From a virus (lineage: Duplodnaviria > Heunggongvirae > Uroviricota > Caudoviricetes), in the IMG/VR virus record IMGVR_UViG_3300032220_001761, positions 1,134-65,133 of that record: DNA of 64,000 nucleotides. One strand, 5' to 3'. Positions 15,678 through 35,845 of this stretch are shown piece after piece (the first letter of the stretch is position 1; every line of letters begins with the position of its first letter). Below the pieces are notes generated by a model. That model saw only the letters and a program-made list of their open reading frames with translations, searched no databases and had not been told where the DNA came from. Both the position numbers and the translations under genes were made by a program.

Positions 15678-17945
15678 ATGAAAAACTTTTTGGTTTTATT
15701 GTTGTGCTTTATAGCACACGTGGGATTTTCGCAAAATCTATTTAAGGACGTAAACAAGCAGGTAATGCTTGTTCCAACACCAGGACAAGAAACGTCTCTG
15801 GTAAATTTTGTATCTGAAAGTAATTCTGAGATTGTATTACACTTTAAGGAACTAAATTGGTATTTGATAAAAATACCAGACGAAGTTTCCCAGGACGAAT
15901 ATCTTTCATATTGTAAGGGTAAAAATTTCATAAAAGCATTTTATAAGGATGAGGTTATGGAATACAACAGGGATTATATTCCAAACGATCCTAATTTTAA
16001 TCTATCCTGGCACTTAAAACAAGCATCAGATGCAGATATAGATGCAGACGAGGCTTGGGATTTAGTATCTAATAATGGTGGCTACACAACAGTTGCAGTT
16101 TTTGATGGTGGATTCGAGCCATTGCACGAGGATCTAGTAGGTAACTACAATAACATTTTTAATGCTGTTACAAATCTTCCTTATAATGGAGCTTTTGCAA
16201 ATTCATTTGATAGACATGGGGTTGCTTGTTCTGGAGTTATAGCTGCTGTTACCAATAATGGAATTGGTGTATCAAGCGTGGGAAATAATCTGGTTCAGGT
16301 TATGCCAATCAATATAATGTCGGGTGTTTATAGTGGAGGATCTTTTAATACATCTTCTTCGATTCAAATTAATGCTATAAATGCTGCAATGGCTAATCCA
16401 ACTTGTGTTGCTATATCTATGTCATACAGCGGATCTTCTTTTAGCCAAGCACTAAATGATGCCTTTTTGACCGCTAGTACAACAGCTAGAGGTGGAAAAG
16501 GAATACTATGTTTTGCAAGTTCTGGTAATGGATATTCAGGAACTGCAACAAATTATCCAGCTTGGTACCCTTCAGTATGGGGTGTTGGAGCTACAGGTCA
16601 ATCAGATACAAAAGCATCTTTCTCCAATTTTGGTCAAATATGTGACATATCAGCTCCAGGATCTTCAATAGTAACAACTGATAGAATAGGTTCAGAAGGA
16701 TATAGCTCCACTTCGAATTATGCAACAGTATCAGGAACTTCTTTTAGTTGTCCAATGACAGCTGCAGCATCAGCATTGGTTGCTTATAGAAATAGTACAT
16801 TAACTGCCGATCAGATTATGTCTATACTATCCCAGACTTGCGATAAAGTTGGAGGATATTCATACACAAATAATCCAAATTTTCCATATTCGACTAGATC
16901 TAATGAATTAGGATACGGAAGAATTAATCTGAAGAATGCAATATTAATGACCCCAGACAACGGAGGGGGAACACCTCCTCCTGTTACAAATCATGATATT
17001 GTTCTAATAAACCCATCAGTTTCTCCACAGACTGGATTATATGGATCTACAATTTCTATATCATGTACACAATTAACAATGAATCCTTCATTGGGAAGTG
17101 TAAATAGTATTATACAATATAGATATTCTTCCAATACAACATGGGGTGATGCTGACGACATTATAATAGGAACTGACACAACGGTTCTTGGTGGAGGTGT
17201 TATATCTGGGACTGAAAATATTTCCTTTATAGTTCCAAGCCAGTCCGGAACTAAATACATTCTAATTAAGTCTAATTTTGATGGATCTATAATAGAATCT
17301 AATTATAGCAATAATCTAGGTGTGGCTAATTTTATACCTATAGATCCTAATATAGCTCTTGCTGATTTGTCGGTGGAATATTTACTTCCTACAACTTCTG
17401 AAATTGTTTTAACTCCTAATCAGATCTCTGTCAATTTTAGATGGAGATTTACAAACACAGGGACAGTTCCTATTACATCCTTCTCATATGAGAAAAAATG
17501 GGTAAATTGCACAGGAAGTTTTATTTTTAGCTGTTACTCAAATTCGTCATGGAGCGGAAATCTTTTACCTGGTCAATCAGTAGTTCTTCCAGGACAGAAT
17601 TCTTGGATTTCATCAAATACTTGCCCACAGCTATCTAATCCTTCCTCGACAGTTTGTTTTGTTCCTTTAGGTGGATCTAACACATACAGGACAACGATTG
17701 TTTCAGTGAATGGATCAACTGGAGATTATAATTCTTTAAATAACATAAGGGATATTAACTTTTCAAGACCTCTTCCTGCAGAAGGATCTGTTGATCTCTA
17801 CAGTGTAGATCCAACATACGTTGAAATATACACAGTTACAGGCAGTCTTTTAGATAAAGCAAGATGGGATGAATTACCTAGCGGGATCTATCTAGTAAAA
17901 GAGATTTATCCAGATGAAACTAGAGTGATAAAAAGAGCAAAATAA
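15678..17945 (+). CDS. secreted subtilisin-like serine protease (S8) with C-terminal beta domains and a type IX secretion (Por) C-terminal sorting domain
   Basis: Signal peptide MKNFLVLLLCFIAHVGFSQ. Catalytic triad contexts VAVFDGG (Asp), HGVACSGVIAA (His), GTSFSCPMTAAAS (Ser). CARDB-like segment. C-terminus ELPSGIYLVKEIYPDETRVIKRAK resembles the T9SS CTD. Confidence 0.8.
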   Translation: MKNFLVLLLCFIAHVGFSQNLFKDVNKQVMLVPTPGQETSLVNFVSESNSEIVLHFKELNWYLIKIPDEVSQDEYLSYCKGKNFIKAFYKDEVMEYNRDYIPNDPNFNLSWHLKQASDADIDADEAWDLVSNNGGYTTVAVFDGGFEPLHEDLVGNYNNIFNAVTNLPYNGAFANSFDRHGVACSGVIAAVTNNGIGVSSVGNNLVQVMPINIMSGVYSGGSFNTSSSIQINAINAAMANPTCVAISMSYSGSSFSQALNDAFLTASTTARGGKGILCFASSGNGYSGTATNYPAWYPSVWGVGATGQSDTKASFSNFGQICDISAPGSSIVTTDRIGSEGYSSTSNYATVSGTSFSCPMTAAASALVAYRNSTLTADQIMSILSQTCDKVGGYSYTNNPNFPYSTRSNELGYGRINLKNAILMTPDNGGGTPPPVTNHDIVLINPSVSPQTGLYGSTISISCTQLTMNPSLGSVNSIIQYRYSSNTTWGDADDIIIGTDTTVLGGGVISGTENISFIVPSQSGTKYILIKSNFDGSIIESNYSNNLGVANFIPIDPNIALADLSVEYLLPTTSEIVLTPNQISVNFRWRFTNTGTVPITSFSYEKKWVNCTGSFIFSCYSNSSWSGNLLPGQSVVLPGQNSWISSNTCPQLSNPSSTVCFVPLGGSNTYRTTIVSVNGSTGDYNSLNNIRDINFSRPLPAEGSVDLYSVDPTYVEIYTVTGSLLDKARWDELPSGIYLVKEIYPDETRVIKRAK

Positions 17946-20258: not shown

Positions 20259-21449
20259 TTAATCTAATGAATAGAACTTCCTTCTTATATTGATCAACAT
20301 AGAGGAAGTTAAATCTGGATCAACAGTATCTGGTAGATCTGATTCATTAAATAAACGATCGATTTCTAGAATGTCATTTTCAGCACGATCGATTAAGCTT
20401 TGCAAATCAACTTCACCTCTACGAATGGCCAACAGTTCTTGAGCATTTTCTCTTCTAACTAAGATACCTTTACCCTGAGCAATTTCTTTAGCCATTTCAA
20501 GTAGCCTACGACAGTGCATCATGTTTTTACCATCGATCTTTTGACCGTGAGTTTCAACATCAACCCATCTTTGTAAGTTTCTTTTATCTAGCCATTCTTG
20601 GTATTCGTTGTAATCTTTACAATGTTGAGTGTATCCATCTTTATTGTAAATGATATTACAGATCGGTTTTTCTCCTTTAGGAATAGAAGATAAACGTAAT
20701 TGGTTCGATTCTGCTAGGTTAGATCCCTCCCCAGTTTTCACAAGACCTTTATATCCAAATCCGAAAGGTTCCCCCTTTATATTTTGAGAATCCTTTTGGA
20801 ATCTACGTAATTCTCCTGGGATAGATTCACTAAAACAACAATAAGCAATACTATCAAAGAAAACTGCATATAGGTCTCTGGCGTTAGGAACATTAGAAAC
20901 CCCACAGAATTTTTCTTCAAATCCTTCCTTCTCGTTCCATATCTTCCATGGGATTGATTTTTCACCTTCAATAACATAGCAGAAATCAAGAACATCCTTT
21001 CTGGTAACCTTTTCTTTTTCCCAGTTTTGCTTCTTATCCTGTCCTTTTGCCTTCTTGATCTGTTGGATAGCATATCCACCAAACGAATTAGAGCACTTTT
21101 TAGTGATAAATTGGTCCCGTAGCTCAATTATTTCCCCTATCAATGGGTGTTTGTATAGAATACAGTCTTCTGGTGTGTTTAAGAGCTCTAAAATAGTTGG
21201 ATTATTAGAAGCAACTAATTCTAGAAATCTTTTGACCTCATAAAAAACTGTGTCGTTCTTGTCGTCATTGATCTGCTCTTTATAATGGAAGCCTAAGATG
21301 TCGTCTATCTTTTGTATATAAACACCAGCATAGTCTATATCAGAGGTAGGTAAAGCAGTACCATAAGCCTGTGATCCTCTTTTAACAATAAGTAAGGGCT
21401 GAGCCCCAGGGGACTTGCTTTCTATCAAGTCCAAAAATTCTTGTAACAT
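20259..21449 (-). CDS. polymerase-beta-superfamily nucleotidyltransferase (minimal NTase N-domain plus helical C-domain)
   Basis: NTase signature KRGSQAYGTALPTSDIDYAGVY (GS...SDxD). Confidence 0.5.
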   Translation of the reverse strand: MLQEFLDLIESKSPGAQPLLIVKRGSQAYGTALPTSDIDYAGVYIQKIDDILGFHYKEQINDDKNDTVFYEVKRFLELVASNNPTILELLNTPEDCILYKHPLIGEIIELRDQFITKKCSNSFGGYAIQQIKKAKGQDKKQNWEKEKVTRKDVLDFCYVIEGEKSIPWKIWNEKEGFEEKFCGVSNVPNARDLYAVFFDSIAYCCFSESIPGELRRFQKDSQNIKGEPFGFGYKGLVKTGEGSNLAESNQLRLSSIPKGEKPICNIIYNKDGYTQHCKDYNEYQEWLDKRNLQRWVDVETHGQKIDGKNMMHCRRLLEMAKEIAQGKGILVRRENAQELLAIRRGEVDLQSLIDRAENDILEIDRLFNESDLPDTVDPDLTSSMLINIRRKFYSLD

Positions 21450-21856
21450 TATAGCAATTTTAAATGATTAGTAACAGGATCTATTTCATCCGCCCAATTT
21501 GGTCCAATGGCAATACATGTTTTTGTAGGTACACCACTAAATTCAGTAAGACCCGCATCAGTGATTATAGATGCAATAAGTCCCGCATCCTTAGCCTTTT
21601 CGTATATCTCTATTAATTCAGATTCGGAATCTACTGAAACACAAACCTTAGTAAATAACCCATTGATCCAAGACTCCATTGGGGTTCCACTTTCAAGTAT
21701 GAGTGTTTTTTCTTGAATTTCTTTTCTGTGCGACAATATAACCATTCGATCTAGTACTGCTGCCATTGATGCGTGTGCACCTTGAGCTACCATCTTGCCT
21801 TTTCTCATATTCAGGTCTTTGCGCATGACAATAACCTGCTTTGCTATTCTTTCCAT
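21449..21856 (-). CDS. peptidyl-tRNA hydrolase, PTH2 family
   Basis: QVIVMRKDLNMRKGKMVAQGAHAS, ITDAGLTEF...TKTCIAIGP, VTNHLKLL, all matching PTH2 conserved blocks. Confidence 0.75.
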   Translation of the reverse strand: MERIAKQVIVMRKDLNMRKGKMVAQGAHASMAAVLDRMVILSHRKEIQEKTLILESGTPMESWINGLFTKVCVSVDSESELIEIYEKAKDAGLIASIITDAGLTEFSGVPTKTCIAIGPNWADEIDPVTNHLKLL

Positions 21857-23739: not shown

Positions 23740-24072
23740 ATGTGTCTAGGTTATGTTTATCTAATAGTCGAGTCAGACCAAAACGGGAACGAAAAATATA
23801 AAATTGGGGTGACTAAAAAGAACCCAGAGGAAAGGGTTAAGAAATTAAGAACTGGAAATTCCAACGAACTTTTTGTAATAAGGAAATATGAAAGTTACAA
23901 TTATAGGAAAATAGAAAAATGGCTACATAGAAAGTATTCAGGACAAAGAACAATATCTATGAATGAATTTTTTAACCTAACAGATGATCAAGTAGCAAAC
24001 TTTATAGATGACTGTAAAAAAATAGATAAAATTATAAGCTATATGCTTGAGAATAACCCGTATTTTAAATAG
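23740..24072 (+). CDS. GIY-YIG-like / T5orf172-domain protein
   Basis: GYVYLIVESDQNGNEKYKIGVTKKNPEERVKKLRTGN...EKWLHRKY matches the GIY-YIG/T5orf172 core (GYVY..KIG.T....R...L). Confidence 0.55.
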   Translation: MCLGYVYLIVESDQNGNEKYKIGVTKKNPEERVKKLRTGNSNELFVIRKYESYNYRKIEKWLHRKYSGQRTISMNEFFNLTDDQVANFIDDCKKIDKIISYMLENNPYFK

Positions 24073-24074: not shown

Positions 24075-24641
24075 CTAATCTTTTATTCCAAAGTTATTTA
24101 AAAGAGATCCGCCAGATCCAGCATAAGCATCAACCCATTCTTGATTTAACATCGCATTAATTAGCCTTACAAATCTAGTTCTTGTTTTCATTTCTTTTCT
24201 TAGCATAGAACCAAATTCTATTGGACGATCTTCCATAATATCAAGCATATCTAAGAATGCTTCTATAACTTTTGTTTTCTCATCCTCAGTGCCTTTACCA
24301 AAAATAGTATAGGATTCTTGGAAGATTTTAAGCTGAGCTTCTAGATCTTGTTTTTCGTCTATCCATTTTTCCTCCTGTTTACCCCAACTTTCTATTTCGG
24401 ATTCAAATTTGGAATTTTCTTTTTCTAGTTTTGAATATGAATCTTCTAATCCATAGATCTCGTCGTCTTTTTTCTCGACAGTTTTTTCCAGATCCCTAAT
24501 ATCCTCTTCTAGCTCGTCTATTCTATCCACGAGATCAGAATTTTTATCCTCTAAAGATTCTATCTGGTCCAACAGTTTTTGAATGTAATCGTTAGATACT
24601 TCCTCCTCGTTTAATTTATATTCGCTAAAATTCTTTATCAT
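24075..24641 (-). CDS. coiled-coil protein
   Basis: Heptad-rich acidic sequence (LEDKNSDLVDRIDELEEDIRDLEKTVEKKDDEI). Confidence 0.45.
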   Translation of the reverse strand: MIKNFSEYKLNEEEVSNDYIQKLLDQIESLEDKNSDLVDRIDELEEDIRDLEKTVEKKDDEIYGLEDSYSKLEKENSKFESEIESWGKQEEKWIDEKQDLEAQLKIFQESYTIFGKGTEDEKTKVIEAFLDMLDIMEDRPIEFGSMLRKEMKTRTRFVRLINAMLNQEWVDAYAGSGGSLLNNFGIKD

Positions 24642-25222
24642 TTCTTTTCCTTCCTATTCTTTTTAGCTTGTTGATATAATTTCTTATCACTCATCTTGGT
24701 AGTTTTACCGCCGGTTACAAAAGAATTAACTCTTGCCATAGCCCATTGCTGTGGGGTTGTTCCTGGAATATGACCTGTTTTCCAAGCAGCATATCCTCTT
24801 TTCCATACCTGAGTTAGAATACCCTGAGGAAACCCTGTTTTATCTGATTTATTTTTTAACGCTTTTCTTACAGGACTGCTTGGTGAGCTAGCTCCCTCCA
24901 TTAAAAACCCCTCAATCTCTAATATTTCAGACTCTGACATATTGTTCAGCTCTTGAATAAATTCATTTTCAATTTCCTCCATTACTTCCATAAACTGGTA
25001 AGGATCTGTCATTAAATTTTCGCCAAACATTTGCTTGTATTTTTTAGTGTATTTACTAGATTTTGTATCTACAGGTTTACCTTTTCCTGCTTTTCCCGAC
25101 TTATAATCAGCGTCCCATGGTCCATAAGCAGAGGAGTCATCATCGGCTTTATGTCCGTGTTTTTTGATCTCCCTCTTCATTATGTTGGGATTTTTTGTGA
25201 GGTATTTTTTTGGAAGTTTCAC
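24638..25222 (-). CDS. hypothetical basic protein
   Basis: 194-aa ORF, 4-bp overlap with downstream gene. Confidence 0.45.
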   Translation of the reverse strand: MKLPKKYLTKNPNIMKREIKKHGHKADDDSSAYGPWDADYKSGKAGKGKPVDTKSSKYTKKYKQMFGENLMTDPYQFMEVMEEIENEFIQELNNMSESEILEIEGFLMEGASSPSSPVRKALKNKSDKTGFPQGILTQVWKRGYAAWKTGHIPGTTPQQWAMARVNSFVTGGKTTKMSDKKLYQQAKKNRKEKK

Positions 25223-25250
25223 TAGACTACATTTATTTCTATATGTATCT

Positions 25251-25263
25251 CTGAAAATTTCAG
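25251..25263. promoter_or_regulatory. inverted repeat CTGAAA-A-TTTCAG upstream of the plus-strand block starting at 25299
   Basis: Read directly in the 76-bp gap between divergent genes. Confidence 0.25.
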
Positions 25264-25298
25264 AAAAGATTTTTTTTATATGTTAGAAGTTTCTATCT

Positions 25299-25724
25299 TT
25301 GGCCCAAGAAACAAACAATGAGGTCTTCAGTAATATAGCCATGATAAGAAGCAAATATAGCAGGAGAATAAGGAAAAAGAAGAGACTGGGCGAATTTACA
25401 GAGAACGGATTTCTCATTTATCTTTATTGTGGGGAAGACAAAGACTTTTTCATAATCGATTCATTTATCGACCTTATTGTTAAAAAAAGGATGTATTGCT
25501 CCGGGGGTGGTGATTCTAAAAAATATTCATTCCTTGTAGAAAGACAAAGAAAAGAAATAACACCAGAAGAGAGAGAATTTGTAATAGAGGAGGCTAGAAA
25601 AATACAAGGGGTAAATGATGTATTAGCTTTAGATTTAGTCAATCTATGGTACAGCGACTCAGATGAGTATTTCGAAAAAGCAGAAGAAAAAATTAAAGAG
25701 CATGAAGAAAAAAGAGGAATATAA
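25299..25724 (+). CDS. hypothetical protein
   Basis: 141-aa ORF. Confidence 0.4.
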   Translation: MAQETNNEVFSNIAMIRSKYSRRIRKKKRLGEFTENGFLIYLYCGEDKDFFIIDSFIDLIVKKRMYCSGGGDSKKYSFLVERQRKEITPEEREFVIEEARKIQGVNDVLALDLVNLWYSDSDEYFEKAEEKIKEHEEKRGI

Positions 25725-26244
25725 ACAACAAATCCTTGGAGAAGTATTTACACCTGTTTTTATGACAGAGGATGAATTCGAAAAAGGATACAAAGAATCT
25801 ATATTTTGGACAGATAAGGATTTCATGTCAGAGTATAGAAAGCACATAGCTGCAATGTCTCATGTATCTGAATGTGCGAAGATATACATTCTTAAAAATT
25901 GGGCGAAGGTCAAGGATTGGAGCGAATTAGATGTGGTTATAGTACATGGTCCTTCTGGAAAAATGACGGAATACTATAATTATGTTCCTAGAGAAATTAA
26001 CAACGACCATAAAATAAAGGAAGGGGCTTATTCAAATCTGTTAAAAGAAATTGATGAGAAAAACAAGCTAAAGCATAATCCCATAAGGGAATTTAACGAG
26101 GTTATCCTTGACCCCACAGACGGTGATTTTTCAGTTACAGTAAATGGCAACGAAGAGCACTGGTGGATACAAGACGAAGCTGTTATAATAATAGCAGATT
26201 ATATTGAAGAACAATTAAAAAAACAAGATAATGAGGAAGCTTAA
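25663..26244 (+). CDS. hypothetical protein (start probably the Met at 25702)
   Basis: 193-aa ORF with lysine-rich N-terminus. Confidence 0.45.
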   Translation: MSISKKQKKKLKSMKKKEEYKQQILGEVFTPVFMTEDEFEKGYKESIFWTDKDFMSEYRKHIAAMSHVSECAKIYILKNWAKVKDWSELDVVIVHGPSGKMTEYYNYVPREINNDHKIKEGAYSNLLKEIDEKNKLKHNPIREFNEVILDPTDGDFSVTVNGNEEHWWIQDEAVIIIADYIEEQLKKQDNEEA

Positions 26245-27127
26245 CTTAGCAAATCCAGAAAAAAGTGGGATAGAATTTCAAATTTCTAAATTCCCAGATG
26301 GTCAGCAATCAGTGACTATAAATTCTCCGTTCTTAGCATCAACAGAACCTATAACAATAATCTCTAGAATGAACTCGTTCCGAGATCTTGAGCTTATCAT
26401 CTGTGCTAATGTCGCATTAAAAGAAATAGGAACTAAAGAAATCCATCTCTTTGTACCTTATTTTTTAGGAGCAAGATCAGATCGTAAATTCGTAGACGGA
26501 GGATCTAACTACCTAAAAGATGTCATCTGTCCTATCATCAACATGCAGAATTTCGAAACGGTTACGGTTTTAGATCCTCACTCTGATGTTTTAGAAGCTT
26601 GTCTTAAAAATTTCAGAAAAGAAACCAATATTGAATTTGTAAGAAAAGCTCTTACAAAGATCGATAATACAAATGATGCTAGAGAAAAAATGGTTATCAT
26701 TTCACCTGATGCAGGAGCAATGAAAAAGATCTATCAGGTTGCAGAAGCATTCTCGTTAGACAAAATTGTTATCGCTGCTAAACACAGGGATTTGAAATCT
26801 GGAAAGATTACTCACACGGAAGTACCAGATCTCAATAAATATTCACCAGATTCAAACTTTGTCATTATAGATGACATCTGCGATGGAGGTAGAACATTTA
26901 CTGAAATATCTAAAGTAATCAAATCTCATGTCTGGCCGAGGGACGAATATTTCAGAGGTAAGATCTATTTGATTATTACCCATGGTATTTTCTCTGCTGG
27001 TCTTTTAGATTTGAGTAGAAACTTCGACAATGTATTTACAACAAACAGTGTAAGGGATCTTGAGGTCGAGGATTTTTCAGATTACACTGTATCAAAAGAT
27101 TTTGTAATCCAATTTGAAGTTGTCTAA
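26231..27127 (+). CDS. ribose-phosphate pyrophosphokinase (PRPP synthetase) family protein. Candidate ADP-ribose pyrophosphokinase (Adps) of an NAD+ reconstitution pathway
   Basis: Prs-like blocks: FPDGQ (FsDGE), LELIICANVALKEIGTKEIHLFVPYFLGARSDRK (PYfgYaRQDRK), ISPDAGAMKK, and PRPP-binding loop VIIDDICDGGRT. Confidence 0.7.
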   Translation: MRKLNLANPEKSGIEFQISKFPDGQQSVTINSPFLASTEPITIISRMNSFRDLELIICANVALKEIGTKEIHLFVPYFLGARSDRKFVDGGSNYLKDVICPIINMQNFETVTVLDPHSDVLEACLKNFRKETNIEFVRKALTKIDNTNDAREKMVIISPDAGAMKKIYQVAEAFSLDKIVIAAKHRDLKSGKITHTEVPDLNKYSPDSNFVIIDDICDGGRTFTEISKVIKSHVWPRDEYFRGKIYLIITHGIFSAGLLDLSRNFDNVFTTNSVRDLEVEDFSDYTVSKDFVIQFEVV

Positions 27128-27129
27128 TT

Positions 27130-27498
27130 ATGAAAACAGAATTTAAAATCTCATCTATAGTCGGTATAAAAACCATTAATGAGAGAGAAAATACGTCATT
27201 TCAATGGTTTGATGAAATTCCAAGTAAATCTACATTTTTTGGAATGTTCAAATCTGAAAAAGTATCAGAAGGATTTGGAGAGATTGGGTACAATACGAGG
27301 TATACGGATCTGGACCTAATAAAAAGAGGTTATAACGTAAGTGGAAAGAAGGTATTTTACAGACCATATGCTACAGTCTATTTGGAACACGAGTACGAGG
27401 TACAAAAAACATTTAGATCCAATGAAGAAATGTCAGCATGGGTAAACTACCTAAAGACTGAAAATGGTGGAAATTTTGAAATTGTTAATCACAAATGA
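27130..27498 (+). CDS. hypothetical protein
   Basis: 122-aa ORF between the Prs-like and macro genes. 4-bp overlap downstream. Confidence 0.45.
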   Translation: MKTEFKISSIVGIKTINERENTSFQWFDEIPSKSTFFGMFKSEKVSEGFGEIGYNTRYTDLDLIKRGYNVSGKKVFYRPYATVYLEHEYEVQKTFRSNEEMSAWVNYLKTENGGNFEIVNHK

Positions 27499-28019
27499 GA
27501 TACGAAGAAATACAGGGGGATCTAATCAAATTAGCCAAAGAAGCTAAATTTGATGTTATAGCTCACGGATGCAATTGTCATTCACAAATGGGAGCTGGTT
27601 TAGCACCTCAAATGGCTAAAGCTTTTGGATGTGATAAATTCGAAATGGAATCTTGGGGATCCACTATTGAAAAACTTGGATGTATAGATTTTGAAACATT
27701 GGTATTAGGAAAAAATTCAATTTGGAGTTTAGCTGATGCAGACAACAAAGAAGGTGATCCTGAACTAGCAGTAGTTAATGCCTACACCCAATATAACTAT
27801 GGAAGAAATCACTCGGATGGGGATTTAAAACCTATAGATTATGAAGCACTTACCCTTTGCATGAGAAAAATGAATAAAATTTTTACAGGCAAACATATAG
27901 GTCTTCCACAAATAGGTGCAGGATTAGCAGGAGGAAATTGGAACAGAATTAAAAACATTATTCAAACAGAACTAGTTGACTGCAAAGTCACTGTAGTCAT
28001 TTACAACAAATTAGTATGA
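27495..28019 (+). CDS. macro domain protein (TARG1/OARD1-like ADP-ribose processing)
   Basis: VIAHGCNCHSQMGAGLA and GLPQIGAGLAGG match the OARD1-type macro ADP-ribose pocket (hGCNC..mGaGiA ... G.GlaGG). Confidence 0.65.
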   Translation: MRYEEIQGDLIKLAKEAKFDVIAHGCNCHSQMGAGLAPQMAKAFGCDKFEMESWGSTIEKLGCIDFETLVLGKNSIWSLADADNKEGDPELAVVNAYTQYNYGRNHSDGDLKPIDYEALTLCMRKMNKIFTGKHIGLPQIGAGLAGGNWNRIKNIIQTELVDCKVTVVIYNKLV

Positions 28020-28471
28020 CACTAAAAGACAAAATTCAAAAAGAATTCGTTGAAGCTATGAAAGCTAAAAACGATGTTGCTAAATCTGCCCTTAGCGGAT
28101 TAAAGGCAAAAATTACAGAGGCTGAAAAGGCTAACGGAAACGTATCCCTTGGAGATCCAGAGGTTGTTAAAGTCGTAAGCTCCGCAATCAAACAAAGAAA
28201 GCAATCTGTTGATGCTTTTGAGCAAGCTGGAAGAACTGATCTAGCCAATAAAGAAAAAGGCGAGATTATAGTATTGGAAACATTCCTTCCTAAGCAAATG
28301 ACAGAGGACGAGATTGAAAAGGCCGTAAGAGAAATCATTGCAAATATGCCAGAAGTTGCTACCAATGCTAATGCTCTTCAAGGAAAAACAATGGGTGCTT
28401 TCAACAAAGCTTATTCAGGTCAAGCAGATTCTAAAGTTGTAATGGAGATCATTAAAAAAGTAACAACATGA
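28016..28471 (+). CDS. GatB/YqeY domain protein
   Basis: DKIQKEFVEAMKAKNDVAKSALSGLKAKI...QRKQSVDAFEQAGRTDLANKEKGEIIVLETFLP...ANALQGKTMGAFNKAYSGQADSKVV follows the YqeY/GatB C-terminal domain pattern. Confidence 0.65.
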   Translation: MTLKDKIQKEFVEAMKAKNDVAKSALSGLKAKITEAEKANGNVSLGDPEVVKVVSSAIKQRKQSVDAFEQAGRTDLANKEKGEIIVLETFLPKQMTEDEIEKAVREIIANMPEVATNANALQGKTMGAFNKAYSGQADSKVVMEIIKKVTT

Positions 28472-28692
28472 AACCTATAACAGCTAAAGAAGCTAGAGAA
28501 ATAACTGATGCTTATTCCGAAGCGGGAATGGACGATATTCTAAAAAATATCAGAGAAGGTGCTGCTGGTGGAAATGACCATTTAACAATGGACTACGTTT
28601 CAAAAGGTCAAAAAAAGGTTTTGGAATCTCTTGGATATGGTGTTAATTGGCATGACATGGGGAGAGATGGGTATTGGAAAATTTCATGGTAA
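28468..28692 (+). CDS. hypothetical small protein
   Basis: 74-aa ORF, 4-bp overlap. Confidence 0.4.
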   Translation: MKPITAKEAREITDAYSEAGMDDILKNIREGAAGGNDHLTMDYVSKGQKKVLESLGYGVNWHDMGRDGYWKISW

Positions 28693-28736
28693 AAACAAGA
28701 AAATATTAATCAATACTATTTACACTGGAGTGGATA

Positions 28737-28925
28737 ATGGATAAAAAATTAGAATCTGAGTACATCTATTGGGTAAAGAGGCTAAGGCTCGAAGACCTTC
28801 ATACAGAAATGCAAAATATAGAGTGGGGGATTCAAAATATAAAATCCGAAAAAACTTTAGAAAATGTCCTTGTCAAAAAAGGAATACTCGAAAAAGAATA
28901 CGAAACAAGAAATAACAAGAAATAA
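28737..28925 (+). CDS. hypothetical small protein
   Basis: 62-aa ORF. Confidence 0.3.
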   Translation: MDKKLESEYIYWVKRLRLEDLHTEMQNIEWGIQNIKSEKTLENVLVKKGILEKEYETRNNKK

Positions 28926-28926
28926 A

Positions 28927-29418
28927 ATGGAAAAAAATAGCAAATACTATTTCTTCTATAAAACAAGGCATCCATTTTCCAATTGGCATCCATGTTCATT
29001 TGAAGACAAAGAAGGAAATCAATACACTTGCTCAGAGCAATACATGATGGCTCAGAAAGCTTTACTCTTTGGAGATAAAGAAATATTTGAAGAAATCATG
29101 GACGAACCGGATCCAAAATTTCAAAAAGAATTGGGAAGGAAGGTTAAAGGGTTCGATTCTAAGATATGGAACGATAATGCGAAAAGAATAGTTTATGAAG
29201 GATGTAAGCTTAAATTTGAACAAAATGAAAAGTTACTAAAAGTATTACTTGATACAAAAGGAACTTTTCTAGTAGAGGCTTCTCCATATGATAGAATCTG
29301 GGGTATAGGTCTTGGAGAAGACGATCCAGCAATACACGATCCTGCTAATTGGAATGGATTGAATTGGCTAGGTGAAGTTCTTACCGACTTAAGAGATGAC
29401 ATAATTAATAATCAATAA
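28927..29418 (+). CDS. NADAR-domain (YbiA-like) N-glycosidase / ADP-ribosyl glycohydrolase
   Basis: FSNWHPCSF...YTCSEQYMMAQKALLFGD...LGRKVKGFD...KFEQNEKLLKVLLDTKGTFLVEASPYDRIWGIGL matches the NADAR/YbiA family. Start set to Met at 28927, immediately after the preceding stop. Confidence 0.65.
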   Translation: MEKNSKYYFFYKTRHPFSNWHPCSFEDKEGNQYTCSEQYMMAQKALLFGDKEIFEEIMDEPDPKFQKELGRKVKGFDSKIWNDNAKRIVYEGCKLKFEQNEKLLKVLLDTKGTFLVEASPYDRIWGIGLGEDDPAIHDPANWNGLNWLGEVLTDLRDDIINNQ

Positions 29419-29430
29419 AAACAAAACAAA

Positions 29431-30993
29431 ATGTTCAAACCAAACAGTTTATTCTACAGCGACGGCTATAAGATTGGCCACAAAAAAATGCTTGCTAAAG
29501 GAACTTCTCGTCTTTATGGTACATGGATTCCTAGAAGCATTAAGCATGCTCCTAAAGGTGTTAAGAAAATCCTTTCATTCGGACAACAACTTGCAATGAA
29601 ATGGCTTCATGATGAATTTTCAGAAAACTTTTTTAAACTATCCAAAGAAGATGCAATGCAATTCGGAAATGATATGTCATTGTATCTTGGTATGGATTAT
29701 GATGCTTCGCACTTTGAAGCTCTTCATGATCTAGGATATCTTCCAATTCGTGTAAAATCTTTACCAGAGGGGATCGAGACTTTACCAAATATCCCTCATA
29801 TGACATTCATTAACACTCTTGATGGATTTGCTTGGCTTACTCTTTATCTTGAAACTATCATTTCTTCACTTTCTTGGAAGCCTTCAACTTCGGCAACCAT
29901 TGCATTACAATACAAAAGAAACGTGGTTGAATGGGTAATGAAAACGGATCCAGCAAATTCTTTCCTCATTCCTTTTCTTTGCCATGATTTTTCTGCTAGG
30001 GGATTAAGTCCTTGGGATATGTTATCAAGCGGTCTAGGACACGCTACATCATTTCTAGGATCTGATACAATCATTTGTATCCCAGGAGCACGTTACTTCT
30101 ATAACGAGCCTAATGACCAAGTTGCAATCTACTCTGTAAATGCTTCTGAACACTCCGTATCGACAACTAAGATTTTTACAGTTGGTGAACAACAAATGAT
30201 AGCGGATTGGTTGGTAGATTTTCCTAAAGGTATCTTATCAATTGTATCTGATACTTTTGACCTTTGGAAGTTAATCACCGAGTACTTACCAGCAAATAAA
30301 GAAGCTATCATGGCTCGTGACGGTAAGTTAGTTATTCGTCCCGATTCTGGTGATCCTGTTGATATTATTTGTGGAATCAATACAAGGAATGATCCTGATA
30401 ATCGTTACGTTAAATTAGCTGGTACTCCTGAATACAAAGGAGTAATTGAATTACTTTGGGACATCTTCGGTGGCACAACCAATGAACAGGGTTACAAAGT
30501 ACTAGATCCTCATATCGGAGCAATCTATGGGGATTCAATTAATTTGGATCGTCAAATTCAAATCTATGAAAGATTGGAAGCTAAAGGTTTTGCTGCAACT
30601 AACATTGTTTTAGGAGTAGGATCTTTTACGTACCAAATGAACACTAGAGATACTTTTGGTTTTGCAGCTAAAGGAGCTTGGTTCGAGGTTAAAGAAGAGA
30701 TTGGTCAAACAGTTGATACATTACAGCCAATTTACAAATACACTGGATTTGATATTTTTAAGGATCCTGTAACAGATGATGGTACTAAAAAATCTCTAAA
30801 AGGTATGGTTGCTGTATTTGAAAATGACGGAGACCATTATGTTAAGATTCAATGTACACAGGAAGAAGAGGAAACAGGATTACTACAAGTTATCTATGAA
30901 AATGGTAATTTTTATAACCAATCTTCATTAACTGAGATTAGAGCAAAAATCAATGAGCTTTGTAACGAAAAAGTTCTTGAAACAGAAATTTAA
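29431..30993 (+). CDS. nicotinamide phosphoribosyltransferase (NAMPT/NadV) family protein. Candidate nicotinamide-ADPR transferase (Namat)
   Basis: N-terminal SDGYKIGHKKM...GTSRLYGTWIPRS (TDSYK..H...YP.T...ys.R) and overall 520-aa NAMPT-like length. Confidence 0.8.
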   Translation: MFKPNSLFYSDGYKIGHKKMLAKGTSRLYGTWIPRSIKHAPKGVKKILSFGQQLAMKWLHDEFSENFFKLSKEDAMQFGNDMSLYLGMDYDASHFEALHDLGYLPIRVKSLPEGIETLPNIPHMTFINTLDGFAWLTLYLETIISSLSWKPSTSATIALQYKRNVVEWVMKTDPANSFLIPFLCHDFSARGLSPWDMLSSGLGHATSFLGSDTIICIPGARYFYNEPNDQVAIYSVNASEHSVSTTKIFTVGEQQMIADWLVDFPKGILSIVSDTFDLWKLITEYLPANKEAIMARDGKLVIRPDSGDPVDIICGINTRNDPDNRYVKLAGTPEYKGVIELLWDIFGGTTNEQGYKVLDPHIGAIYGDSINLDRQIQIYERLEAKGFAATNIVLGVGSFTYQMNTRDTFGFAAKGAWFEVKEEIGQTVDTLQPIYKYTGFDIFKDPVTDDGTKKSLKGMVAVFENDGDHYVKIQCTQEEEETGLLQVIYENGNFYNQSSLTEIRAKINELCNEKVLETEI

Positions 30994-31005
30994 TAAGTAT
31001 TGAAT

Positions 31006-31043
31006 CCTCTGCTGTAAATCCCCAACGGCAGAGGGTTTATTTT
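31006..31043 (+). terminator. rho-independent terminator after the NAMPT-like gene
   Basis: CCTCTGC...GCAGAGG stem followed by GTTTATTTT. Confidence 0.6.
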
Positions 31044-31075
31044 AAAGGGGTTTAATTTTTTTCAAATAAACAAAA

Positions 31076-32935
31076 ATGTTAGAAACAGTAATTCAGTATT
31101 GGTGGACAATTATTCCACTGTTAGCAATTGTATTCTACAAGTTTACATTGCGTGTATTTTTCGGGATGGTAATTATCCCGGAAGATAAAATCGGTTTGGT
31201 AACCAAAAAATTCGTTCTCTTCGGAGCAAACAAACAATTACCAGACGGAAAAATTATTGCTCTCAACGGAGAAGCAGGTTATCAAGCAAATGCTTTAGCT
31301 CCTGGTTTATACTGGGGTTACTGGGTTTGGCAGTTCTCTGTAGATCAAGCGGATCTTACAGTCATTCCTAAAGGGAAAATTGGTTTGTTGTCAGCAAAGG
31401 ACGGAACGCAACTTCCTACTGGTGCTATCCTTGCACGTCACGTAGAATGTGACAACTTCCAGGATACAGTTGCTTTCCTAAACAACAAGGGACAAAGAGG
31501 TAAACAGGTCGGTTATCTAAACAACGGGGTTTACCGTATTAATACATTCCTATTTGATATAGCAATTGCGGATATCACTTATATAGAAGACGGAATGGTT
31601 GGTGTTGTAACTACATTGGATGGAACACCATTAGATCAAGGAAACATTGCTGGTAAAGTTATTCCAGGACACAACAATTTCCAGGATTTTGATAAATTCT
31701 TAAGCAGTGGCGGACAACGTGGTCTACAAGAACAAGTAATTCAAGCTGGTAACTATTCTCTTAATCCTTGGGCAGTTGAGGTTGAAAAAGTTCCAATGAC
31801 AGAAATCGCTATTGGACACGTAGGTGTGGTAATTTCATATGTTGGGGACAAAGGCGAAGATTTAACTGGATCTGGCTTCAAGCATGGTAATATTGTTAGA
31901 GAAGGACAAAAAGGTGTATGTATTACTCCTTTCGATCCTGGTAAATATGCGGTTAACCCTTACACACATAAAATTGAAAGAGTCCCAACAACAAACCTTG
32001 TATTGAACTGGGCAAACGCAAGAACAGAATCGCATAACTTAGATAAGAGTTTAAGTACGATCACTGTTCGTTCAAAAGACGGCTTCCCGTTTAATCTTGA
32101 TGTATCCCAAATTATTCACATTCCTTCTACGGAAGCTCCGAAGGTGATTGCACGATTTGGATCTATGCAAAACTTGGTATCTCAAGTATTAGAGCCAACT
32201 ATCGGTAACTACTTCCGTAACTCTGCTCAAGGCTCAGATGTTATTGCTTTCTTAGCTACCCGACAAGATCGTCAAAATGCAGCTAAAGAAGCTATCAGTA
32301 AGGTTTTAGAGGAATACAACGTTCATGCGGTTGATACACTTATAGGTGATATAGTTCCACCTGATTCTCTAATGAAGACCTTAACCGACCGTAAGATTGC
32401 ACAGGAAGAAGAGGTAACTTTCGAAACACAGCGTAAAGCACAAGACCAACGTAAGACACTAGAGTCTGCTAAGGCTCTTGCTGATATGCAAGGTAAAATG
32501 GTAGCTGCACAACAATCAGTTGAAATCTCACAACGTGAAGCAGAAGCAGCAGTTAAGAAATCAGAAGGGGAAGCGAAAGCATTAGAACTTAAAGCTGGTG
32601 CTCAGGCAAAAGCTAAAAAGCTAATGGCTGAAGCTGATGCTGCTCAGATTAAATTAACAGGTGAAGCTGAAGCATCAAAAATTGCAGCAATTGGTAAATC
32701 TACAGCGGAAGCTTACGAGAAACAGGTTAAAGCAATGGGTGCAGATAACTTCGGTAAATTAAAAGTTACTGAGATGATAGGTACAAACGGAATCAAGATC
32801 ATTCCTGAGATTCTAATCTCTGGCAACGGAGATTCATCTCCGATTAATGGACTTTTAGGGATGGAACTTCTTAAGCAAATTCAAGAAAAGAAAGAAAAAT
32901 CTGGAAACATTAATGAGGGTAAGGTGATAGAATAA
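31076..32935 (+). CDS. flotillin/SPFH-family membrane protein (YqiK-like)
   Basis: N-terminal TM helix. Internally duplicated NFQD...GQRG.Q repeats. Ala/Glu/Lys-rich C-terminal coiled-coil region (AKALELKAGAQAKAKKLMAEADAAQIKLTGEAEASKIAAIGKSTAEAYEKQ) typical of bacterial flotillins. Confidence 0.65.
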   Translation: MLETVIQYWWTIIPLLAIVFYKFTLRVFFGMVIIPEDKIGLVTKKFVLFGANKQLPDGKIIALNGEAGYQANALAPGLYWGYWVWQFSVDQADLTVIPKGKIGLLSAKDGTQLPTGAILARHVECDNFQDTVAFLNNKGQRGKQVGYLNNGVYRINTFLFDIAIADITYIEDGMVGVVTTLDGTPLDQGNIAGKVIPGHNNFQDFDKFLSSGGQRGLQEQVIQAGNYSLNPWAVEVEKVPMTEIAIGHVGVVISYVGDKGEDLTGSGFKHGNIVREGQKGVCITPFDPGKYAVNPYTHKIERVPTTNLVLNWANARTESHNLDKSLSTITVRSKDGFPFNLDVSQIIHIPSTEAPKVIARFGSMQNLVSQVLEPTIGNYFRNSAQGSDVIAFLATRQDRQNAAKEAISKVLEEYNVHAVDTLIGDIVPPDSLMKTLTDRKIAQEEEVTFETQRKAQDQRKTLESAKALADMQGKMVAAQQSVEISQREAEAAVKKSEGEAKALELKAGAQAKAKKLMAEADAAQIKLTGEAEASKIAAIGKSTAEAYEKQVKAMGADNFGKLKVTEMIGTNGIKIIPEILISGNGDSSPINGLLGMELLKQIQEKKEKSGNINEGKVIE

Positions 32936-32938
32936 AGG

Positions 32939-33415
32939 ATGAAATTACAAGTCCTTAAACCAACTGACGGTGACTCTGTAAAAAACAGAGTCACCGTTTT
33001 TCTTGCAGGATCTATTGAGATGGGTGCTGCAGAAGATTGGCAAACAAAATTAGCCAACGATTTACAAGACATCCCGGTAACACTTTTTAACCCAAGAAGA
33101 GATTCTTGGGATTCTTCATGGGAGCAAAGAATGTCTAATCCAGAGTTCAGATACCAGGTAAACTGGGAGATGAACATGCTAGAATCTTCCGATATAATAT
33201 TTCTTTATCTTTCTCCGGAAACTAAATCCCCTATTTCACTACATGAATTAGGACTTCATGCTGACAGTGGAAAAATGATAGTTTGTTGTCCCGATGGATT
33301 TTGGAGAAAGGGAAACGTTGAAATAACTTGTGCTAGACACGGTATTCCTTTATACAACGATATAAACCATGCAAAGGATGCTTTAATCACGCTAATAAGC
33401 TCTAAAACAATATAA
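32939..33415 (+). CDS. nucleoside 2-deoxyribosyltransferase-like / DNPH1-like N-glycoside hydrolase fold protein
   Basis: VFLAGSIE (iYlAGP-type start), ...SLHELGLHADSGKMIV (catalytic-Glu ELG motif of the NDT/DNPH1 family). 3 bp after the flotillin stop. Confidence 0.5.
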   Translation: MKLQVLKPTDGDSVKNRVTVFLAGSIEMGAAEDWQTKLANDLQDIPVTLFNPRRDSWDSSWEQRMSNPEFRYQVNWEMNMLESSDIIFLYLSPETKSPISLHELGLHADSGKMIVCCPDGFWRKGNVEITCARHGIPLYNDINHAKDALITLISSKTI

Positions 33416-33416
33416 A

Positions 33417-34343
33417 ATGAATGATTTAAAATTTTTGAATACTGCCTTCGTAATAAAAAAGGACAGTAAAACAGGTGGGAACGGAACTATTACCTATATG
33501 GATTTAGAAATGTCACCATCTTCCGACAGGGTTGAAACCTGGGGACTTACAGAAGCAGGGGAAGCCCCACACGAACTTAGAATGGTTACTAGATCTAAAT
33601 TTTTTGAGCTTCAAAGATTTCAGGTAAAGTCGACATACCCTTCAGAACTTATATCTGATCTTAATTATTACCACGGAGTAGATGGTAATTCTATGATTGA
33701 TGAGGCATTGAATAATGAGATGGATCAATCTCTCATTAAAAATCTATACAAAAAATACAGTGAGATTGGAGAAATAACAAGGGTATCCCAATATACAAAA
33801 TGGCAAAAGTTCATTCTTAAAATCTCCCCTAAAATGATTTTTACCAATTATATTAAAGAGGATAGAAATGGATCTGAAATGCTCTATAATAAGATTGTGG
33901 TAGAAGCTAATAAGATAGCATCTAGAACAAGAATAAAACCAGGAGATTTTATTGTATGTGGTTCACTAGTAGGGTCTTTATTACAGGATCACCCAGGATT
34001 TTCATTCGAGTCATTAAATAACTCGATCTCTATGAAAACACCTAGCATAGACTATGTTGGAAACATTGCAGGAAGAATAGCTGTTTATGTTAATGCAAAT
34101 GAAAAGTTTAGTGATGGATGGGTAATTATAGGCAGAAAAACAAACACACATGAAACTGGTGTCTATTTTATTTATGAGGACAGAGAAAAAATTCAACTAG
34201 CGGATATAGATCCATCAAAAAATAAATTTGGTATAACACAAAGAGCTGCAATAGTTGATACCCACGGGGCAGAAAAATCATTTTCAAAAATACACTTCAC
34301 AGTGGGTAAAAAACCATTCTGGAAAAAACTTTTTAATATTTAA
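33417..34343 (+). CDS. hypothetical protein
   Basis: 308-aa ORF, 1 bp after the upstream stop. Confidence 0.5.
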   Translation: MNDLKFLNTAFVIKKDSKTGGNGTITYMDLEMSPSSDRVETWGLTEAGEAPHELRMVTRSKFFELQRFQVKSTYPSELISDLNYYHGVDGNSMIDEALNNEMDQSLIKNLYKKYSEIGEITRVSQYTKWQKFILKISPKMIFTNYIKEDRNGSEMLYNKIVVEANKIASRTRIKPGDFIVCGSLVGSLLQDHPGFSFESLNNSISMKTPSIDYVGNIAGRIAVYVNANEKFSDGWVIIGRKTNTHETGVYFIYEDREKIQLADIDPSKNKFGITQRAAIVDTHGAEKSFSKIHFTVGKKPFWKKLFNI

Positions 34344-34351
34344 AAAAATCC

Positions 34352-35845
34352 ATGGCTATCTTAGGAGATATTAAATATATCGACATGGATATTAATGATC
34401 CATTAGAATTTAAAGAATTCCCAGGGAGAATAGTTTTAGTTACTTCTTTTTTAGATATAGGGAGAGGAAACTGGAAGGATTATTCAAGAAATGCAGATAC
34501 CTATATAAGATCTTTTTTGAATTATCTAGATTATGAGTATGAGATGATAATATTCATAGACGAGAGATACCATAGTGAAATAGTCGGGTATTACAATGAA
34601 TCTAAGTATAAAAATAAAACGATAATCCCAATTAATAAGGATTGGTGCAATGAAAATTTAGATTCGTGGAAAAAGTTAAATTCCTATAATAACATAATGT
34701 CATCAGATTACTATAAAGGAATTGTAGGGCATAGGATAACATCAGGGTCTCCAGAAAATATATCACCAGAGTATAACATTATAAATCATTCAAAGATAGA
34801 TTTTTTAAAGTATTGTATAGATAACAGATTATCAGAATCTGATTTTTTCTGCTGGACTGATTTTGGATACTTCAATGCAATACTCCAAAATAATAATGAT
34901 TACTATCCTAAATCTATTTTAAGCAACAAGAAATTTAATTACGACAAGATAAGTTTTTTTCTTAGAAACAAAATAGAGGAGGTAGATGCAGATACTATCT
35001 ACACTCTAATAAATTCACCAGAGAAATTTACTGGATCATTTTGGGGTGGAAATACAAAAAATATAAATGCTCTTCATAGTTTATATCATGAATCTTTAGA
35101 TGAAATGATGGAGCAAAATATAGCTGACGACGATCAGCATGTATACCTAAAATGTTTTTTAAAAAATCCAGGAATTTTCCAACTGTACTTATCTAATAAA
35201 GAATGGCCAAAAGCTCTTAAATACATGGAGGACAAAAAATATTATACAGGGAAGAAATTTTTTGATTGCGGAACTCACTTTTTTGAAGGATTTGAGAAAT
35301 TCGCTAAAATGTATAATATTGATGATAAATGGAAATGCTATTGTTTCGAAGCTAATCCTATCACTTATTCGATGTCAATAAAAAAGATGAAAGAATTAAT
35401 AGGTGTGGGGCACAATATAGATTATTTCAATTTAGCAGTTACTAATAAAAACACAGAAATCAAAATAAACTGTGCATTAGATTCAGGATCTTTTACAAAT
35501 CAAGGATCAAATATATTAGATTCCCCGCCAGATAGAGACATAGTATATGGGGGTGTTTTTAATTATAACAGCGATTCTTTTTATGTTAGAGGATTAATAT
35601 TCTCAGACTTTCTAAAACAAACTGTAAATGAAGGAGATTTTGTTGTAATTAAAATGGACATAGAGGGATCTGAATTTGATGTTATGGATTCACTAATTGA
35701 AACTGGAACATTCAAACTTATAAGCCAGATTTATGTAGAATATCACGAAAGATTTTTTGAAGATGTTGAAGCTTATAGTGAGAAGAAAAAATCATACGAA
35801 AGAATATTCAAAGAACACAATATAGCAATAAAAGAATGGGAATAG
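34352..35845 (+). CDS. two-domain protein: N-terminal putative glycan-modifying domain plus C-terminal FkbM-family methyltransferase domain
   Basis: C-terminal FkbM blocks FDCGTHFFEGF...YCFEANPITY...NLAV...GDFVVIKMDIEGSEFDVM...IYVEYHE. Confidence 0.5.
   Translation: MAILGDIKYIDMDINDPLEFKEFPGRIVLVTSFLDIGRGNWKDYSRNADTYIRSFLNYLDYEYEMIIFIDERYHSEIVGYYNESKYKNKTIIPINKDWCNENLDSWKKLNSYNNIMSSDYYKGIVGHRITSGSPENISPEYNIINHSKIDFLKYCIDNRLSESDFFCWTDFGYFNAILQNNNDYYPKSILSNKKFNYDKISFFLRNKIEEVDADTIYTLINSPEKFTGSFWGGNTKNINALHSLYHESLDEMMEQNIADDDQHVYLKCFLKNPGIFQLYLSNKEWPKALKYMEDKKYYTGKKFFDCGTHFFEGFEKFAKMYNIDDKWKCYCFEANPITYSMSIKKMKELIGVGHNIDYFNLAVTNKNTEIKINCALDSGSFTNQGSNILDSPPDRDIVYGGVFNYNSDSFYVRGLIFSDFLKQTVNEGDFVVIKMDIEGSEFDVMDSLIETGTFKLISQIYVEYHERFFEDVEAYSEKKKSYERIFKEHNIAIKEWE

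Follow-up and report, generated by a model that had tools for sequence, protein, structure and literature searches.

Predicted macrodomain and NADAR ADP-ribosyl hydrolases encoded between NARP1-like NAD+ synthesis genes in a Caudoviricetes phage

Genes at the locus

We analysed 64,000 nucleotides of viral DNA (Caudoviricetes; IMG/VR record IMGVR_UViG_3300032220_001761, positions 1,134 to 65,133), referred to here as the window, and within it a run of co-directional genes on the + strand at 25.3–34.3 kb that encodes two predicted ADP-ribosyl hydrolases, a macrodomain protein and a NADAR protein. The window is phage DNA, as indicated by a Gp23-like capsid gene and by its relatives among IMG/VR contigs. 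The two hydrolase genes lie between a gene annotated as Prs-like and a gene annotated as Nampt-like, which are called Adps-like and Namat-like below (Table 1). A first-pass annotation had described a macrodomain and NADAR pair inside an NAD+ island. Both domains were found where it had put them, and the island around them is real and resembles the NARP1 type.

Table 1. Genes of the co-directional run, with window coordinates
Feature	Position	Strand	Evidence
193-residue protein of unassigned function (unk193)	25663-26244	+	
Adps-like gene (annotated Prs-like)	26231-27127	+	phrog_619 match, 1.7e-60
Conserved 122-residue protein (unk122)	27130-27498	+	53% identity and same position, between Adps and macrodomain genes, in relative L121
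Macrodomain ADP-ribosyl hydrolase (predicted), 174 residues	27495-28019	+	phrog_335, PDB profile matches, AlphaFold2 model
YqeY/GatB C-terminal-domain protein, 151 residues, tRNA-binding-type domain	28016-28471	+	PF09424, 2e-35; phrog_1460
Conserved lineage-specific 74-residue protein (unk74; class judged from sequence)	28468-28692	+	85% identity in L121
Putative 62-residue open reading frame (unk62)	28737-28925	+	without homologue in fetched loci
NADAR ADP-ribosyl N-glycohydrolase (predicted), Phytophthora NADAR/YbiA type, 163 residues	28927-29418	+	PF08719, 5.9e-52
Namat-like gene (annotated Nampt-like)	29431-30993	+	phrog_448 match, 6e-156
SPFH/Band-7 protein	31076-32935	+	
Nucleoside 2-deoxyribosyltransferase-like protein (Ndt2)	32939-33415	+	PF15891, 6e-37

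From the Adps-like to the Namat-like gene, eight open reading frames (ORFs) of this large aquatic phage are tightly packed on one strand, with successive junctions of 2, -4, -4, -4, 44, 1 and 12 nucleotides. The stop of unk122 overlaps the start of the macrodomain gene by 4 nucleotides, and the YqeY gene overlaps both of its neighbours by the same length. Because of these junctions, the block is almost certainly co-transcribed and, in part, almost certainly translationally coupled. A scan of 24500-34500 for consensus promoters and terminators was uninformative, as the sites found were no more numerous than in shuffled sequence.

The long ORF that carries the NADAR domain opens at 28864, which had been taken as the start of the gene. 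The domain assignment holds, and this start probably does not. Similarity to homologues sets in at Met22 of that ORF, a database protein 98% identical to the window NADAR has 163 residues, and homologues have 158-168; the gene therefore most likely starts at 28927, one base past the stop of the upstream ORF.

Predicted active sites of the two hydrolases

The NADAR protein scored 176.6 bits against the Pfam model (cutoff 35.1). Its best match in the PDB was the NADAR of Phytophthora nicotianae (8BAU, 5.6e-23), and the match to E. coli YbiA was much weaker (3e-7). Its AlphaFold2 model (pLDDT 95.6) gave TM-scores of 0.86 to 8BAU and 0.78 to YbiA (2B3W). The 13 ADP-ribose contacts of the Phytophthora NADAR described by Schuller et al. 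(PMC11543638) were mapped onto the window protein by alignment, and 10 of the 13 are identical. The catalytic Glu and Lys, E43 and K50, correspond to E37 and K44 in the window; K75, G78, R79, V81 and W89 correspond to K67, G70, R71, V73 and W81; and E125, D130 and W133 correspond to E117 (within a VEASP motif), D122 and W125. The three positions that differ are Y84, D86 and R93, which are F76, S78 and A85 in the window protein. The catalytic Glu and Lys of NADARs are spaced by seven residues (E43/K50 in Phytophthora, E88/K95 in E. coli C7, E36/K43 in AdfN; PMC11543638). E37, K44, E117, D122 and W125 are invariant in homologues, E37 and K44 in 37 and 11 sequences, respectively. At the level of sequence, the NADAR active site is intact.

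The position equivalent to Phytophthora E125 distinguishes NADAR clades, being Glu in the YbiA type, Asp in the DarT1-linked clade and His in the T4-type phage clade (PMC11543638). With Glu117 at this position and 170 bits against the YbiA-type model TIGR02464 (cutoff 73.7), the window protein is by sequence a member of the NADAR superfamily and of its YbiA-type subfamily. A DarG1-type NADAR was ruled out, since the block contains no transferase and Glu117 stands where DarG1 has Asp. Membership of the T4 AdfN clade was also rejected (BLASTP E 0.26 and hhalign probability 1% against gp30.3; Glu rather than His). The window NADAR and muut_144, a protein of a Justusliebigvirus, share 39% identity. 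Against the NADARs of Justusliebigvirus and Vequintavirinae the figure is 39-43%, and the motifs EQYMM..K and VEASP.D.IWG are common to them and the window protein. AdfN-Bas60 is carried by Bas62, among other phages, and Bas62 belongs to Justusliebigvirus; relatedness to the AdfN-Bas60 type was judged through muut_144, from the genus of Bas62. In vitro, each of the four NADAR subtypes associated with E. coli hydrolyses guanine-ADP-ribose, and NADARs also act on RNA guanosine-ADP-ribose and on cytidine ADP-ribosylation.

The family assignment raises a first alternative, namely that the NADAR is a housekeeping YbiA-type N-glycosidase acting on riboflavin-pathway intermediates, or that the two hydrolases reverse marks made by Alt- or Mod-like ADP-ribosyltransferases of the phage itself. 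TIGR02464, whose cutoff the protein clears, is named 'riboflavin biosynthesis intermediates N-glycosidase', chromosomal Paenibacillus NADARs are 55-58% identical to the window NADAR, and the NADARs of T4-like phages are expressed alongside ADP-ribosyltransferases. However, riboflavin genes are absent nearby, the conserved neighbours being NAD+ salvage and macrodomain genes, and no ADP-ribosyltransferase appears among the window Pfam matches listed (25 of 60 families). We consider a housekeeping or self-control role very unlikely.

The macrodomain protein fell below the threshold of the Pfam Macro model (E 0.0099, 16.3 bits, cutoff 22) and matched phrog_335 at 1.9e-43. Sequence and profile searches of the PDB returned BT1257, SCO6735, TARG1, Poa1p and DarG. 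Its AlphaFold2 model (pLDDT 79) has a macro fold, for which BT1257, DarG, TARG1, Poa1p and SCO6735 were the best Foldseek matches. Residue equivalences were taken from a HMMER alignment to SCO6735 (5E3B), read against Hlousek-Kasun et al. (PMC9411070). Asn27 corresponds to Asn27 of SCO6735 and Asn22 of DarG, Gln99 to Gln85 of SCO6735 (the site of Lys80 in DarG and Lys84 in TARG1), and Gly141 and Gly143 to Gly126 and Gly128 of SCO6735, while Ala145 occupies the position of TARG1 Asp125. Asn27, Gln99, both Gly residues and the Ala at the TARG1 Asp125 site are invariant across 32 macrodomain homologues. The motifs MGAGLA and GAGLAGG (a GxGLAGG loop) are also invariant in homologues, and both Gly-rich loops are present in the window protein.

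The modelled fold, the conserved Asn and the Gly-rich phosphate loops place the protein in the ALC1-like class (TARG1, DarG, SCO6735 and Poa1p). Within this class its residues are those of the SCO6735/BT1257 subclass, with a GCGLAGG-type loop, Gln at the site of the catalytic Lys and no counterpart of the TARG1 Asp; the predicted active site is intact. A DarG2 or AdfM type was rejected on the basis of Gln99 at the Lys position, the length of 174 residues and the lack of a second domain. SCO6735, the closest macrodomain to have been characterised, efficiently reverses thymidine ADP-ribosylation by DarT via Gln85, and the Q85A mutation inactivates it (PMC9411070). All ALC1-like macrodomains tested (DarG, TARG1 and SCO6735) strip ADP-ribose from thymine (PMC9411070).

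The first-pass annotation had called the macrodomain TARG1/DarG-type, had proposed structure prediction and comparison of catalytic residues for both proteins, and had named loss of the NADAR Glu and Lys, or of the Gly-rich loops of the macrodomain, as evidence against its idea. The PDB profile and Foldseek matches bear out its class assignment. The predicted structures agree with it too, the NADAR model resembling 8BAU and YbiA and the macrodomain model having DarG and TARG1 among its best matches. Neither loss was found: the NADAR retains E37 and K44, and the macrodomain retains its loops, Asn27 and the SCO6735-type Gln.

Predicted NAD+ synthesis genes, YqeY and the arrangement in other phages

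Phage operons annotated as Prs plus Nampt encode ADP-ribose pyrophosphate synthetase (Adps) and Namat, the two enzymes of NARP1, a pathway that leads from ADP-ribose, nicotinamide and ATP to NAD+; NARP2 consists of Nampt and Nmnat (Osterman et al. 2024, bioRxiv 10.1101/2024.02.11.579819). In pairwise comparisons, the Prs-like protein of the window was 35% identical to the Adps Bas63_0079 (98.6 bits) and 22% identical to E. coli Prs (42.7 bits). It failed every NCBIfam Prs cutoff (best 87 bits vs 113). The Nampt-like protein was 39-40% identical to the Namat Bas63_0080 (202+113 bits) and 29% identical to Nmnat-linked Nampts (147-166 bits). No Nmnat homologue was found in the 64-kb window, and the Namat-like gene is 7 genes from the Adps-like gene, inside the 10-gene criterion of Osterman et al. 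Judged by similarity, from which its activity is also predicted, the flanking pair looks like an Adps and a Namat of the NARP1 kind. A NARP2 reading of the two genes was dropped, since NARP2 is Nampt plus Nmnat and a Prs-like with a Nampt-like gene is NARP1.

Nucleotide searches with 26200-31000, and with the corresponding cluster of a distant relative (L042, below), gave no match in 50,697 phage records. By sequence, this is a phage without a close sequenced relative, and the nearest isolates by protein were Leptolyngbya phage Lbo-JY46, Tenacibaculum phage PTm1 and Cellulophaga phages. We compared the locus with relatives among IMG/VR contigs of 40-250 kb and with isolates; loci are labelled L followed by a number. 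In L121, whose NADAR is 82% identical, the order is unk193-Adps-unk122-macro-YqeY-unk74-...-NADAR-...-Namat-Band7-Ndt2, with other small genes in the variable slots. A compact form was found in L120 (Adps-macro-NADAR-Ndt2-Namat), and other orders in L093-L095 (Adps-macro-NADAR-Namat) and L053 (Adps-Namat-NADAR). In a distant clade (L042 and others), where Nampt identity drops to 29%, the order is NadM (Nmnat-Nudix)-SLOG-Nampt-NADAR-macro, and the genes abut or overlap. Synechococcus phage B23 has NMNAT-NADAR-x-Nampt, Stenotrophomonas phage RAS14 (L123) has NadM-...-YqeY-x-NADAR-...-Nampt, and Listeria phage WIL-1 has RtcB-x-NADAR-x-probable YqeY-RNA ligase.

Within 8 kb of NADAR in 41 non-redundant viral clusters, we found Nampt or Namat in 8, a NadM-like gene in 7, YqeY in 6, a macrodomain in 4 and Adps in 4. 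In an unbiased count of Pfam families among the two nearest genes to either side of NADAR, NAPRTase, Macro and NUDIX came out on top. The linkage of NADAR to NAD+ salvage genes is real, but it occurs in a minority of clusters. Two further genes accompany the island. Ndt2 is present in L006, L086-L095 and L121, and in L120 it lies between NADAR and Namat. The SPFH/Band-7 gene is the best conserved of the island, at 78-87% identity in relatives, and in most of these Band-7 and Ndt2 come after Namat.

The distant clade bears on a second alternative, in which the macrodomain and NADAR proteins mainly turn small ADP-ribose derivatives, products of host immunity or RNA processing, into ADP-ribose for NARP1 and in doing so destroy signals or toxins. 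Candidates are cyclic ADP-ribose isomers, ADP-ribose-1''-phosphate, O-acetyl-ADP-ribose and amino-acid-ADP-ribose signals. Such substrates were favoured by Iyer et al. 2022 (PMC9503650). They would directly explain the presence of hydrolases inside a pathway fed by free ADP-ribose, and the overlapping genes of the NadM-SLOG-Nampt-NADAR-macro arrangement count in the same direction. The N-terminal motif of the macrodomain also fits Poa1p, an ADP-ribose-1''-phosphate phosphatase, and its PHROG family is named 'phosphatase'. Of the Poa1p-type phosphatase residues, however, only the His is conserved, the position of Ser30 being out of register, which is not decisive. Moreover, cleavage of a soluble immune signal is not known for any NADAR, and all tested NADARs and ALC1-like macrodomains act on nucleic-acid base adducts. 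Processing of soluble derivatives is in our judgement possible but unlikely.

The YqeY gene, between the macrodomain gene and unk74, had been left out of the first-pass annotation. Its L121 counterpart has 79% identity. Few phages encode a YqeY homologue (48 of 50,697 records), yet six of the 41 NADAR clusters have one within 8 kb, in several unrelated lineages. Elsewhere, genes with YqeY/GatB domains were found at L121:5937-6392, L042:2275-2670, L123:4365-4796 and L119:5184-5720. In bacteria, yqeY is part of the rpsU-dnaG-rpoD operon of Francisella (rpsU-yqeY-dnaG-rpoD), and some E. coli strains have a NADAR gene inside their rpsU-dnaG-rpoD operon.

Three small ORFs interleaved with the hydrolase genes had been listed as of unknown function. 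Two of them, unk122 and unk74, are conserved genes, and the third, unk62, had no homologue in any fetched locus, its slot being held by different genes in L121. The unk122 family comprises 55 clusters at 50% identity, of proteins with 120-135 residues (HMMER search of 1.84 billion representatives), and had no match in Pfam, PHROG or the PDB, profile searches included. For unk74, only 8 clusters were found in a collection of 5.8 billion proteins, all at least 85% identical, and its PHROG matches were weak and to families of unassigned function. The few near-identical clusters, together with its 85% identity in L121, mark it as a lineage-specific small protein apparently under strong constraint. 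In L121 it is better conserved than the adjoining macrodomain (67%).

The YqeY linkage suggests a third alternative, in which ADP-ribose is cleared from RNA, and especially tRNA, by the NADAR alone or together with the macrodomain, YqeY serves as a targeting or protecting factor, and NAD+ resynthesis supports the repair. YqeY, though rare in phages, recurs near this NADAR family, as in RAS14 and WIL-1, and reversal of RNA guanosine ADP-ribosylation is known for no hydrolases other than NADARs. The window also codes for an RNA ligase, RlaP, PTH2, SmpB, YggL, cREC and a CCA-adding-like domain. However, the RNA-repair genes of the window are 6-18 kb away and on the other strand, the locus has no linked RNA-directed transferase, free-standing YqeY has no known function in the literature, and the Listeria YqeY match is below threshold (19.4 bits vs 27). 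We regard such a module as doubtful. The narrower claim that YqeY is a working partner of the NADAR, with or without the macrodomain, in RNA or tRNA de-ADP-ribosylation or protection coupled to NAD+ regeneration is improbable to a like degree, and it is no less of a long shot that the rpsU operons of Francisella and E. coli reflect the same partnership. If true, the operon would be a closed ADP-ribose erase-and-recycle circuit with an undescribed specificity factor.

Other genes of the window were noted in passing. The RNA-repair and translation-rescue genes are at 10288-11397 (-), 20259-21449 (-), 21449-21856 (-), 25299-25724 (+) and 56989-57420 (-), the set comprising an RNA ligase with a PHA02142 OB domain, an RlaP nucleotidyltransferase, a PTH2 peptidyl-tRNA hydrolase, a YggL 50S-binding protein and SmpB; cREC cyclic-phosphate-processing and poly(A)-polymerase/CCA-adding head domains are also encoded. 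No tRNA genes were found in the window. The RlaP gene (20259-21449) is 5 kb upstream of the NAD+ island, and a Pol-beta/RlaP-like nucleotidyltransferase gene (L123:2530-3138) lies in the RAS14 island between NadM and YqeY; this family may be another recurrent island companion. Directly after the island, and before glycosyltransferase and methyltransferase genes, is the gene for the short (308-residue) Gp23-like capsid-family protein (33417-34343). L121 keeps this order, with a T4 Y07B-like gene ahead. A response-regulator receiver domain (54394-54825, -) lies near the large ORFs 54818-56947 and 47511-49286, and PAS, GAF and histidine-kinase ATPase domains occur among the large ORFs of the window; together these domains suggest that the phage encodes a two-component-like sensor. 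A sigma-70-family factor, a 755-residue subtilase and a T5orf172/MUG113 (GIY-YIG-related) protein are encoded at 12422-13294, 15678-17945 and 23740-24072, all on the + strand.

A proposed erase-and-recycle operon and its relation to known systems

What might two ADP-ribosyl hydrolases contribute to an NAD+ synthesis operon? We favour an erase-and-recycle counter-defence, to which we give about as much credence as doubt: two erasers would work with a NARP1-type pathway, the substrates, the DarT target and the coupling between them being the conjectural parts. For the macrodomain, the most likely substrate would be ADP-ribosylated thymine in single-stranded DNA, with uracil, phosphate ends or acidic side chains of proteins as possible further sites. 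For the NADAR, it would be ADP-ribosylated guanine, and perhaps cytosine, of DNA or RNA. Between them, the two enzymes would clear the marks left by ADP-ribosyltransferase toxins of the host (DarT2 and DarT1, for example), and every such reaction would free ADP-ribose. Adps would then pyrophosphorylate the freed ADP-ribose, and Namat would join the product to nicotinamide to give NAD+; the pair would also recycle ADP-ribose and nicotinamide released by NADase defences. Pairing erasers with NAD+ resynthesis makes sense because erasing marks while the toxin remains uninhibited is a futile cycle that burns NAD+. The first-pass annotation had proposed that the released ADP-ribose serves as a NARP substrate. 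This fits, since the flanking genes look like NARP1 Adps and Namat and NARP1 is fed by free ADP-ribose, so that the predicted products of the erasers match the substrate of the pathway.

Several points weigh against erase-and-recycle counter-defence. No DarT or other transferase was found linked to the locus or, with Pfam and NCBIfam, in the block. The window NADAR falls outside the DarG1 and T4 AdfN clades and passes the NCBI model for YbiA-type riboflavin glycosidases, and E. coli YbiA and T4 gp30.3 do not rescue cells from DarT1 despite their activity in vitro. The macrodomain is not a DarG equivalog (NF048014, 26 bits vs a cutoff of 250). The assignment of Adps and Namat was made by pairwise similarity. 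The NADARs of Vequintavirinae and Justusliebigvirus (AdfN-Bas60 type) are not beside NAD+ genes, so that an anti-DarT function needs no such linkage. NARP2-type islands, RNA ligases and YqeY are further linkage partners of this NADAR family, and NARP2 does not use ADP-ribose directly. This linkage to NAD+ salvage, YqeY and RNA-repair genes in unrelated phages leaves open RNA or soluble targets. Finally, the ADP-ribose obtained from nucleic-acid adducts is probably a small flux compared with that released by NADase defences.

All components of the locus fall into classes already described, and neighbourhoods of this general pattern have been published. We found no description of erasers inserted between Adps and Namat, nor of the linkage of YqeY to NADAR, which was the least expected result. 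Erasure of DarT marks by phage NADAR and macrodomain proteins and reconstitution of NAD+ are each established counter-defences. The position of the erasers inside a NARP1-type operon suggests that the two strategies work as one module, in which marks are erased and the NAD+ spent by the host is then rebuilt. A single module would explain why NADAR and macrodomain genes recur beside NAD+ salvage genes, and the YqeY linkage is a first functional handle on a bacteria-wide family without an assigned role. Short of experiments, the locus stands as an ordinary, well-predicted case of known types of phage anti-defence gene.

How does the locus compare with characterised systems? The macrodomain is most similar, in both sequence and fold, to SCO6735 (5E3B) and BT1257 (2FG1/2AFC) among PDB entries, with which it has in common Asn27, the Gln (85/99) and a GxGLAGGxW phosphate loop without the TARG1 Asp. 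Unlike these proteins it is phage-encoded and has an insertion of ~40 residues (about residues 45-90), and identity is only about 20-25%. AdfM (PhiKZ gp104), a chimallivirus macrodomain that counters DarTG2 by experiment (Cell Rep 2026, PMC13309987), is likewise a stand-alone protein, falls into the DarG/TARG1 structural class and has the conserved Asn. However, AdfM keeps the catalytic lysine of DarG (K78) where the window protein has Gln99, a comparison made by reported residues.

For the NADAR, the fold is common to 8BAU and YbiA (2B3W), as is the YbiA-type Glu, at 31% and 28% identity; the biological context differs. T4 AdfN (gp30.3), AdfN-Bas32 and AdfN-Bas60 counter DarTG1 (Johannesman et al. 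2025, PMC11825919), and the window protein resembles them as a stand-alone phage NADAR with the catalytic Glu and Lys. It differs in having no detectable similarity to T4 AdfN and in having Glu, not His, at the E125 position. It also lies within an NAD+ operon, whereas its relatives in E. coli phages do not.

At the level of gene neighbourhoods, the survey of Iyer et al. 2022 (PMC9503650) reported NADAR in NadV/NadM neighbourhoods and co-occurrence of Macro and NADAR above chance in DNA viruses, and both the association with NAD+ genes and the pairing are seen here. Its text contains 0 occurrences of YqeY and 0 of PRPP/Prs, and because it predates NARP1 it could not name a Prs-like partner as Adps. 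Macrodomain and NADAR proteins are in turn absent from the NARP1 paper (bioRxiv 10.1101/2024.02.11.579819). The locus resembles NARP1 in having a Prs-like and a Nampt-like gene on one strand, at most 10 genes apart and without Nmnat nearby. The described operon consists of two adjacent genes, whereas here six ORFs, including those for the macrodomain, YqeY and NADAR, stand between them.

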